From a virus (Duplodnaviria; Heunggongvirae; Uroviricota; Caudoviricetes), in IMG/VR virus record IMGVR_UViG_2511231131_000010: 46,425 bases of DNA. One strand, given 5' to 3'. Every line of letters begins with the position of its first letter. Position 1 is the stretch's first letter. The position numbers were made by a program. This document shows positions 27,001 to 30,000 of this stretch, one piece after another.

Positions 27001-30000
27001 CGAACCACCACGACAGCATGGTACCAGCAGGATCCCCGCGTTATTCGGGATATACGGGAGCAGTTTTTTGGCAATATGTAAACCCTGACCGACACAGCCG
27101 TACTGCCCTTTGCTCAGGTCAGCCCTCGGATGATTCAGCGTACTCATATCCTGCACATCATGCAGACAGTGGTCAGCCGGAATAATATCGTTATATCTGC
27201 AGGCAGCCCCGCCCGGCGTCACTGTACTGCGGCGCGCCAGCTGTTTAATGCGCGGATCCGGAGCATCGTATGAATCCGGCAGCGGAAGCCCTTCACCGTA
27301 AGCCATGGCATTGGACTGCCCGGCCAGTACGATGACGTAGTACCAATCCGGCTCAGATGAAGGGCCGACCTGTGGCTCTCCTTCAATAGCCACCGCCTGC
27401 ATCAGTGTGTACGGCGTAATGGCAACCGGTCCGCCGTATGGCTGCCAGCCCTCTTTCAGTTTGTGTGTCAGCTTTTCCGCAAGGTCTGACGGCGACGCCG
27501 CCCTGACAACATCATAGTGTTTAAATGCCATGAATCCTCCCGGCCGGGATAATATTGTGAGTAAAATGAGGAGCGGGCTGAAGTCCGGAAGTTACAGGAC
27601 AATGGCAGAAGAGAGACAACAGCCCGCAATACGAAAAAGGCCGCGCTATTGCGCAGAGTGATTACTGTCGGATATTATTCGCCAGCTGAAATATTACTTC
27701 ACGTTTTGTTGTTTATTCCTTGCCGCCCGCGTCTCCCTGCGCGGGCTTTTTTTGTCCATAAGAAAGCCCCTCCGGAGAGGGGCTGGAGAGTGGCGCTATG
27801 TGCCATTGCATGGTGCCGGGTGCCTCCCGGTGAATTCAGTACCAGCACCTGAATCCACGATTATCCCATATACCTACTCGCTGATTGCCCCTCCGCACAG
27901 GGGGATTCACCATGCCAGTTTCTTTTAACAAACTCCCCGCAAAACAGACAACTGTCAACCGTCTGAATTGTGAGACATTTAAAAAAAAGGCCCGCAAAAG
28001 CGAGCCAGGGAAAATAAGTGTGGCGCGTTGTACTGGATTCGAACCAGTGACCGATTGCTTAGAAGGCAATTGCTCTGTCCGGCTGAGCTAACAACGCAGG
28101 ATACAGATAATGGACCGCCTTCGGGGACCCGAACTCCGCGCAACCAGCTTCGAAGGCTGGCGCTCTTTCCTGATGAGATAATGGCGGTATGTGATGGTGG
28201 CCCTTGCTGGATTTGAACCAGCGACCTGGCGATTATGAGTCGCTCGCTCTCACCACTGAGCTAAAGGGCCGCGCGCAGAATAATAACGTTACGGAATTAA
28301 TACTGCAATCTCATCCGTTTCAAACGATTAAATCCTGAACTTCCCTGACTGTCTGCTCAAAACGTCCGGTCTCCAGCTCAACACCAATCGCACGACGCCC
28401 CAGTGCCATCGCCGCTTTTACCGTTGAACCCGACCCCATGAAAAAATCCGCAACCAGATCACCAGGACGACTACTTGCGCTGATTATCTGCTGCAGCATT
28501 TCTGCCGGTTTTTCGCACGGATGTTTCCCTGGATAGTACTGCACCGGTTTATACGTCCACACATCGGTGTACGGCACCTGCACCGTCACACCGAAATACC
28601 GCCGCAAATTTTTATATTCACTCAGCAGTTCCATATACTGCCGGTTCAGCTCACTGTATGTGCTGACCAGCTGGTGGTGTGGCTTTTCCAGTTCCCCGCG
28701 CTGATGTTTCTCTTCTGCCACCCGGGCAAACAACGCCTGCAATTTGTTGTAATCACCCTCGTTCGGTAACTGCCACTGACTGGTACCAAACCAGTGCGAA
28801 GCCATGTTTTTCTTTCCGGTGGCTTCCGCTATCTGTTTTGACGTTATTCCCAGTGATTTACGCGCATCACGAAAGTAAGAAATCAGCGGGGCCATGACGT
28901 GCTGTTTTAGCTCGCGCCCCTGTGCCACATAGCCATCATCTTTCGGGCGATACGGTCCCTGATAATGTTCTGCAAACAGAATGCGCTCTGTTGCCGGAAA
29001 ATACGCCCGCAGACTTTCCTTATTGCACCCGTTCCAGCGTCCGGACGGCTTCGCCCAGATAATGTGGTTCAGCACATTAAAGCGCTCACGCATCATGATT
29101 TCGGTGTCAGATGCCAGGCGATGACCACAGAACAGGTAAAGACTTCCGGCAGGCTTCAGTACCCGCCAGAACTGCGCCAGACACTGGTCCAGCCATTTCA
29201 GGTAATCATCGTCGCCCTCCCACTGGTTATCCCAGCCCTCGGGCTTCACTTTAAAGTATGGCGGGTCTGTGACTATCAGATCGACAGAGTTTTCCGGTAA
29301 GGTCTGGATAAATTCCAGGCAATCAGCGTTGATTAACTCACAACTGGATATTTTTACAGTATTAATCATAGATCAATAAGCACTTCTCTGATAGGCTCAT
29401 ACCGCTTTTGCGCAAAGCAGATGGGCCTGAGGTTTGCTTGTGACCCCAACGCATGAGCAGATGGCTGGCAGGTGCCGCTAACACCCACCAGCCGCCCATT
29501 ACCACAAATTAAAAAACCTTCACTGAGGAAGGCGTCTGTAACAACCGAACTGATAATCTGCCAGACCCGCCATAACAAGCTGAGTCAGTATTAACTGGCA
29601 GCGTTCGCGTGAAAGGTAAGTATTCTGCGCAATTTCCCCGACGGTCGCCGGTTCGGTGACGCTTAATTCATTAAACACCACTCTGGCGGTTTCGGTCATA
29701 TCCTGCTGTTTTAGCATGCCTTTTTCCCTTTTCCGGTTAACGTGACATACCAATACCTCTTGTCGAAAAAGCCAGCAAGCTGAAAGACCGGCATTCGCAA
29801 CCACCAGCGCATTTAACGTCCTGTACCGCTTTTCGGGCACAAAAAAACCCGCATAAAGCGGGTTCTTTCAGGTGTCCATGTCTGCTATTCGCCTCGCGGT
29901 ATAGCTTTGCGAAGCGTAGCTGGATTGAAACAGTTTATGCGTAAAAAATCAAGACATTTTTTGAGCAAACGATTCTCGCATAGGGATGTATAGCGCATAT

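Follow-up and report, generated by a model that had tools for sequence, protein, structure and literature searches.

Short RNAs terminated downstream of late promoters are known from the phages lambda, 21, 82, phi80 and P22 and from Stx phages. In phage 21, the antiterminator protein Q21 has its binding element (Q-binding element, QBE; TGAGCA direct repeats) between the −35 and −10 hexamers, and a −10-like pause element lies in the first transcribed bases (PMC6606751; bioRxiv 10.1101/651190). The corresponding sequence record (AJ237660) reads TTGACA-tcatTGAGCAagTAGCAa-CACTAT-tcgca-TAAGCT-gccgtt...aacggtggcTTTTTTT after the Q21 stop codon; the spacer of 18 nucleotides (nt) holds TGAGCA..TAGCA, and a promoter as well as a 50-nt "aRNA" starting 1 nt before TAAGCT are annotated. 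Lambda additionally needs a −35-like element (PMC6606751). For the Stx1 and Stx2 phages it was shown experimentally that the pR′-tR′ RNA, StxS, is an Hfq-bound regulator (PMC7547250), and the Q-like protein encoded by the antQ-isrK region of Gifsy-1 was shown to suppress termination (PMC4825925). Here, a comparable element is described for the IMG/VR virus record IMGVR_UViG_2511231131_000010 (Caudoviricetes), the 46,425 nt of which were analyzed as a whole and are referred to as the window. Judged from the sequence, its minus strand very probably carries a promoter and a terminator with a pause signal between them, directly 3′ of a phage-21-type Q antiterminator gene, the product of which belongs to the "domain of unknown function" family DUF1133. 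Taken together, these elements are likely to form a Q21-type pR′-QBE-pause-tR′ cassette, which would act as the late-gene switch of a lambdoid prophage.

A candidate late-control cassette behind a Q21 homologue

An earlier note on this DNA had proposed a Q-dependent late promoter followed by a short terminated leader. All its coordinates for the promoter proved correct on the minus strand: the −35 hexamer TTGATT (29952-29947), which overlaps the TGA stop codon (29951-29949) of the upstream open reading frame (ORF), the 17-nt spacer (29946-29930) and the −10 hexamer TTCAAT (29929-29924). The minus-strand sequence after the ORF ending at 29949 reads ...aaaatgtcTTGATTttttacgcataaacTGtTTCAATccagcTACGCTtcgcaaagctataccgcgaggcgaatagcagacatggacacctgaaagAACCCGCtttatGCGGGTTTTTTTg. 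The intrinsic terminator with hairpin and U7 was likewise found as described (stem 29864-29846, U7 29847-29841); the stem is formed by AACCCGC (29864-29858) and GCGGGTT (29852-29846) around the loop TTTAT and can be extended by A-U pairs to 12 bp. The length now predicted for the resulting RNA, ~76 nt (A29917 to ~29842), is close to the ~70 nt expected at the time. Features absent from the earlier note are the TG of an extended −10 element (29932-29931), the −10-like hexamer TACGCT (29918-29913) and a hairpin at the 5′ end of the RNA (Table 1).

The composite pattern TTG-N17(TGn)-TTNAAT-N5-TANGCT has a single match in the 46-kb window, at 29913-29952(−), and none in 100 shuffles of the window, even with one mismatch allowed. 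A generic promoter and terminator scan of the window reported neither the cassette promoter nor the cassette terminator. The promoter was missed because the scanner requires an A at position 2 of the −10 hexamer, which TTCAAT does not have; the terminator may have been missed because its T-run can pair with the A-run ahead of the stem, so that no T tail stays free. Terminators preceded by A-runs may be under-reported by this tool.

Table 1. Features of the candidate cassette and its surroundings in the window
Feature	Position	Strand	Remark
Q-type antiterminator gene, 180 amino acids, Pfam DUF1133	29949..30491	−	Pfam 1e-102
−35 hexamer TTGATT	29947..29952	−	4/6 to consensus; overlaps Q stop codon
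Putative Q-binding element TTTTACGCAT	29937..29946	−	−35/−10 spacer, about −29 to −20; placed by co-variation
Extended −10 TGT (TGn)	29930..29932	−	directly 5′ of −10 hexamer; from sequence
−10 hexamer TTCAAT	29924..29929	−	4/6 to consensus; elsewhere TTGAAT, TTAAAT, TTAACT, TGTAAT
−10-like TACGCT, candidate sigma-dependent pause element	29913..29918	−	exactly 5 nt after −10; predicted start A29917
Predicted short leader RNA, ~76 nt, without Q	29842..29917	−	deduced from promoter geometry and terminator
5′ hairpin of predicted leader RNA, CGCUUCGC/GCGAGGCG	29890..29916	−	8 bp, 11-nt loop; z ~ −4 in the window
Intrinsic terminator (tR′-like)	29841..29869	−	GC core and U7 29847-29841
Second intrinsic terminator	29516..29533	−	terminator scan; after the 65-amino-acid TrmB-like ORF (29717-29520), before the methylase gene

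That the upstream gene is Q, as the earlier note had it, is borne out by profile and fold matches, by which its product is a remote homologue of Q21. An in-frame GTG further upstream (30503) is a possible start; all homologues begin with MIYP at 30491. The match to Phage_antitermQ (PF06530) is weak (28.1 bits at a cut-off of 26), the protein falls into PHROG 753, "anti-termination protein Q-like", and GenBank phage records also call it Q-like. A search of the PDB with the single DUF1133 sequence gave no match, and the link to Q21 emerged only with a profile of diverse homologues: 26 DUF1133 proteins (52-100% identity) retrieved Q21 (PDB 6p18/6jnx) with an E value of 9.4e-8, the alignment extending over the WGxW segment at the N-terminus and all of the sigmaR4-like part at the C-terminus. 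When an AlphaFold2 model of the protein (mean predicted local distance difference test score 67.6; C-terminal half above 90) was compared with the PDB by Foldseek, the top 11 matches were all Q21 (probability 0.99-1.00; template-modeling scores 0.42-0.58), all others being at noise level. The lambda Q family (PF03589) was not matched in the Pfam scan of the protein, nor was a lambda-Q structure among the PDB sequence or fold matches. By its profile and fold matches, DUF1133 thus belongs to the Q21 family, of which it forms a divergent branch. No papers were found in a literature search for "DUF1133".

Conservation of the cassette and co-variation of its spacer with the predicted recognition helix

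From viral contigs and one genome per species, 115 loci with DUF1133 proteins were collected, and the DNA after each stop codon was extracted. The relaxed pattern TTGnnn-N17-nnnnnT-N5-[TC]AnnCT matched exactly once in 34 of 36 distinct promoter-region variants. The DUF1133 proteins of the cassette-bearing loci share 52-100% amino acid identity and come from Escherichia, Salmonella, Citrobacter, Klebsiella, Enterobacter, Buttiauxella, Pluralibacter and others. The 17-nt and 5-nt spacings are constant in all 34 cassette variants, while nearly everything else changes: the −35 hexamer occurs as TTGATT, TTGTAT, TTGCAA and TTGAAT, and the pause-like element as TACGCT, TATGCT, TAAGCT, TAGGCT and TATCCT, with A2 and T6 invariant and T1 present in all variants except one (CAAGCT in L061). 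The position of the unit relative to the end of the stop codon also changes; it starts at −27 (the distant family B), −6, −4 (the window), +5, +16/+19 or +77 (a variant with a different Q C-terminus). In family B (L088-L113), the −35 hexamer and the QBE-like spacer lie within the last nine Q codons (~27 nt), and the −10 hexamer overlaps the stop codon. As the C-terminal tail of these proteins (...LQSEPES vs ...LNSCAES) tracks the class of the DNA site, it is probably a by-product of the promoter.

Column conservation among 11 variants of family A was 0.93 from the promoter through the pause element and 0.94 in the region of the 5′ hairpin, the Q coding region also reaching 0.94; it was 0.79 in the linker, 0.88 in the terminator and fell to 0.50 just after it. 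By megablast, similarity to DUF1133 phages on the Q side stops at 29839 and the module downstream begins at 29852, which puts a mosaic joint in the terminator. The latter module, beginning with the TrmB-like ORF, has matches of 90-96% in phiP27 and in many Stx2 phages, the Q genes of which are unrelated. The drop in conservation and the megablast boundary together indicate that Q gene, promoter, pause element and terminator travel as one module. At the DNA level, DUF1133 is present in 2,461 of 5,426 complete E. coli genomes. For the lysogen E. coli O111:H2 strain 12A, the identity is 99.9%.

The DUF1133 proteins were further aligned on the recognition helix of Q21 (A124-T-C-R-R128) and tabulated against the −35/−10 spacer. 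Helix class and spacer class correspond one-to-one in 113 loci: helix STCEKR, that of the window, goes with the spacer TTTTACGCAT, xTCRNR with TTTA(G/T)CCA, xTCRRR with TGAGC(A/C), and RTCE(S/T/N)R with TTGCGCGG, while RTCCSR goes with no cassette at all. Q21 itself has the helix TCRRE and the site TGAGCA, the same hexamer as in the TCRRR class, and the distance from TGAGCA to the pause-like element is 26 nt in this class and 25 nt in phage 21. The helix classes cross-cut the types of initially transcribed sequence, helix TCRRR being found with both TATGCTTCGCAAAGC... and TAGGCTCGGGACG... leaders, so that the association does not merely reflect shared descent of one block. This co-variation is the strongest indirect sign of what appear to be working Q/qut pairs, and by it the Q site of the window is placed at ~29946-29937. 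In L084-L086 (~3540-3780), where the helix reads TCCSRVD, the TTG-N17-TTnAAT-N5-TAnGCT cassette is absent, and isrK (67-76 bits) and C4 RNA directly follow DUF1133.

The features observed directly (sequence elements, their conservation, homology of the protein to Q21, co-variation of helix and spacer, gene order) can be combined with the published Q21 mechanism into a scheme, to which the start site, the pause, the binding of Q and the read-through are contributed by deduction. The −35 hexamer, the extended −10 TG and TTCAAT would make up a constitutive sigma-70 promoter with its start at ~A29917. The hexamer TACGCT, then at −1 to +5, would be re-bound by sigma region 2 and hold the polymerase in a promoter-proximal pause, from which, when Q is lacking, it would escape, stop at the terminator (29864-29841) and release an RNA of ~76 nt. 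Once made by the early operon, the DUF1133 protein would bind its site in the −35/−10 spacer and load onto the paused polymerase, which would thereby resist the cassette terminator and later ones; the second terminator (Table 1) would also have to be passed by the Q-modified polymerase. Read-through would lead into the TrmB-like ORF, the methylase gene, the tRNAs, STnc100 and the esterase gene, and then into the lysis, terminase and virion genes.

The predicted leader RNA and competing readings of the element

The predicted RNA, taken as 80 nt, folds with −31.1 kcal/mol (z = −5.1), and none of 200 shuffles folds as well. In the window and most variants, the 5′ hairpin is made up by the first 28 nt (about +2 to +28) and begins inside the pause-like element. 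Because alignment of the first 34 leader nt with MAFFT put two types of hairpin out of register, each sequence was folded individually and compared with its shuffles: across 42 distinct leaders the mean z was −2.9, with z < −2 in 32 of them and a weak or absent hairpin in ~8. The two leader types keep the stem with different bases (GCUUCGC/GCGAGGC vs GCUCGG/CUGAGC). In view of the ~8 variants lacking a convincing hairpin, it is taken as likely but not essential. A terminator was detected in 104 of the 107 cassette-bearing loci, its sequence varying (e.g., GCCACCGGAAGGTGGTTTTTTT in O157), and the leaders predicted at related loci measure 63-107 nt. That the hairpin is a functional RNA part of the switch in this Q subfamily, or that the 76-nt leader acts in trans as a regulator in lysogens as StxS does, is a tentative and rather doubtful proposal. 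In the former case, the hairpin might, for example, aid escape from the sigma-dependent pause or the loading of a Q protein that has no Q21 minor-groove loop.

In a permissive scan, the Rfam model of isrK (RF01394) matched the leader over its full length (29915-29842) with 21.6 bits (E 0.01), which is below the 50-bit threshold. No small RNA (sRNA) listed in the Hfq-CRAC table for E. coli O157 Sakai could be matched to a DUF1133 leader (PMC4104026, supplement). Several known sRNAs were considered for the leader and rejected. EcOnc11 and EcOnc33 of Sakai are both antisense to late genes near lysis or esterase genes, and prophage Sp6 has another type of Q. STnc100 (27754-27944) is a separate prophage sRNA and was dismissed as the real late leader because it lies ~2 kb 3′ of Q, beyond the tRNAs. 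The Pas sRNAs are reported from different gene contexts.

The element might instead be mainly a free-standing gene for a small regulatory RNA, like StxS or IsrK, its position after Q being incidental or secondary. The predicted RNA does have the typical shape of an sRNA, a single-stranded linker joining the 5′ hairpin to a terminator with U tail; for Stx phages, the pR′-tR′ RNA is known to bind Hfq and to act as a regulator (PMC7547250); a full-length match to isrK exists below the threshold; and the region of the 5′ hairpin is conserved as much as coding sequence. This reading, however, leaves unexplained why the spacer co-varies with the helix and why an invariant −10-like element sits at +1; moreover, conservation is lowest in the linker, the would-be "seed", and ~8 of 42 leader variants do without the hairpin. 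As an account of the element it is therefore considered unlikely. A role as sRNA and a role as cassette are not mutually exclusive, and the former is possible as a second function.

The second competing reading concerns the promoter itself. If TAnGCT (29918-29913) were the real −10 hexamer, transcription would start ~11 nt further downstream, and there would be no sigma-dependent pause element. TAnGCT has the A2 and T6 by which a −10 hexamer is defined in every variant, and T1 in all except one, whereas TTCAAT lacks A2, and in family B TGn precedes TAnGCT itself. Yet no −35-like hexamer is found 16-18 nt upstream of TACGCT, where the sequence reads CGCATA, whereas TTGnnn stands at a fixed distance of 17 nt from TTnAAT in every cassette variant. 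The TGn motif precedes TTnAAT in ~31 of the 34 cassette variants (manual count) but TAnGCT in family B only, which favors TTnAAT as the genuine −10. The RNA annotated for phage 21 begins 1 nt ahead of the homologous TAAGCT, a hexamer that has been called a −10-like pause element (PMC6606751). A shifted promoter thus appears very improbable.

It is scarcely credible that the hairpin is a plain terminator closing the early-right (Q) operon, next to promoter-like hexamers that arose fortuitously. The last early gene could plausibly be followed by a terminator, and the hexamers each reach only 4/6 to consensus and were not flagged by the generic scan, but the composite pattern has one match in the window and none in its shuffles, its spacings are fixed in 34 divergent variants, some inside the Q coding region and others ~80 nt after it, and chance is excluded because the cassette is conserved.

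Some observations weigh against a Q21-type cassette. Position 2 of the −10 hexamer, where an A is usually critical, is occupied by T, as it is in TTAACT, the −10 hexamer of the trp promoter of E. coli. Because the compared loci share descent, the conservation counts are not counts of independent events. The DUF1133 protein is without ~12 residues of the HT[loop]H minor-groove loop of Q21 (RKMLCRGGGRIQK) and has a longer middle region; its binding to DNA or its loading may therefore differ from that of Q21. Finally, neither TGAGCA nor a clear direct repeat comparable to the pair of TGAGCA subsites for Q21 was found in the spacer of the window, so that the Q-binding site is placed by co-variation only.

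Prophage context and comparison with known systems

The window is a lambdoid prophage. A gene for a CI-like repressor lies on the plus strand (38250-38945), upstream of the cassette. On the minus strand, the cassette is preceded by a Cro-like gene, an isrK/C4/antirepressor module, replication genes (DnaC-like and DnaB proteins), DUF968, RusA and the DUF1133 gene; it is followed by the 65-amino-acid TrmB-like ORF, a DNA methylase gene, three tRNAs, STnc100 and a sialate-esterase-like gene and, further downstream on the same strand, by genes for lysozyme, Rz, Nu1, terminase, portal and capsid. By this gene order, the cassette occupies the very place at which a late promoter would be expected. 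The sequenced phage vB_EcoS-666R9 has it between Q and the holin, endolysin and Rz genes. The late promoter proposed in the earlier note is thus supported, on the level of sequence, by a unit kept with the Q gene across Enterobacteriaceae and by late genes downstream on the same strand.

Further observations were made on the neighborhood. The TrmB-like ORF belongs to PHROG 331. The isrK sequence (36886-36962, 62.3 bits) adjoins the C4 antisense RNA (36777-36864, 75 bits), both within 36777-36962 (−) of the window; the pair overlaps an Ash+Rha antirepressor ORF (36171-37019) in its 5′ part and has a promoter of its own (TTGATT-N17-TACACT). Together they constitute an anti-repressor module resembling P1 immI within the early-right operon. 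The three tRNAs (28021-28270, −), located between Q and the lysis genes, were called as CAT "Met", Arg-TCG and Arg-TCT; the Stx2 phage 2851 has an Ile/Arg/Arg cluster at the same position, and the CAT tRNA of the window may, we presume, be an Ile (lysidine) tRNA. STnc100 is a strong Rfam match (27754-27944, −; 137.7 bits) between the tRNA cluster and the sialate-esterase-like gene, and as a prophage sRNA it is related to PasD (bioRxiv 10.64898/2026.05.13.724894). In the O157:H7 counterpart L121, the anti-sRNA AgvB (5327-5386, −; 56.6 bits) is convergent to STnc100; no AgvB match reached the threshold in the window.

The present analysis gives a functional assignment, that of a Q21-type antiterminator, to a widespread "domain of unknown function" carried by many Enterobacteriaceae prophages, and for prophages with DUF1133 it offers predicted positions of the late promoter, of the pause element and of the probable Q-binding site. 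Four natural classes of helix and site specificity could serve in studies of DNA recognition by Q21-type proteins. The tRNAs, sRNAs and sialate esterase encoded downstream in pathogenic E. coli (toxins or effectors in related phages) would be expressed through this switch, and knowing its location helps to predict the outputs of prophage induction.

Compared with known systems, the antQ-isrK region of Gifsy-1 is alike in that a promoter and a ~77-nt terminated RNA with partial read-through come immediately after a Q-like gene and upstream of the lysis genes. The arrangement described for it is that of L084-L086 (E. coli, Shigella, Salmonella), in which DUF1133 is followed by isrK and C4. The leader in the window, in contrast, is not isrK by the Rfam threshold, a true isrK/C4 copy being located at 36777-36962. 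Cluster names consulted on the identity of AntQ of Gifsy-1 read only "DUF1133" or "antiterminator" and gave no confirmation that it is a DUF1133 protein. With StxS, the predicted RNA of the window would share the constitutive synthesis of a short RNA from the late promoter in lysogens and its end at tR′; the phages concerned are related lambdoid prophages of enterohemorrhagic E. coli, and the module 3′ of the window terminator is common to Stx2 phages. StxS differs in length (258 nt, processed by RNase E to 74 nt), in sequence and in the type of Q (PMC7547250).

The earlier note had drawn its analogy to pR′/qut/tR′ of lambda. The logic is indeed shared: Q is followed by a constitutive promoter whose −35 and −10 hexamers flank a Q site, and a −10-like pause element at ~+1 and a terminator come next, with an abundant short RNA as the product; for the window, the Q site is putative, and the promoter activity, the pause and the RNA are predicted. 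In lambda, the −10 hexamer and the pause element are laid out as TAAATT-N6-AACGAT. Lambda Q, however, is of a different protein family (PF03589), to which the protein of the window has no Pfam match, and lambda 6S RNA measures 194 nt. While the logic of late promoter and terminated leader stands, the nearest relative is therefore pR′/tR′ of phage 21, and "6S-like" holds as an analogy only.

With phage 21, the window shares a homologous Q protein, the order of −35, N17/18, −10, N5, TA(n)GCT and terminator, the position directly after the Q stop codon and a short terminated RNA (50 nt there, ~76 nt predicted here). The two differ in that the proteins are only ~15-20% identical, DUF1133 being without the 12-residue loop and having a longer central segment, in the spacer TTTTACGCAT, which is unrelated to TGAGCA, and in the additional 5′ hairpin, the extended −10 and the TTnAAT hexamer of the window. 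The principle of the switch is textbook knowledge; the cassette is another case of this well-known switch, in a divergent subfamily of Q.

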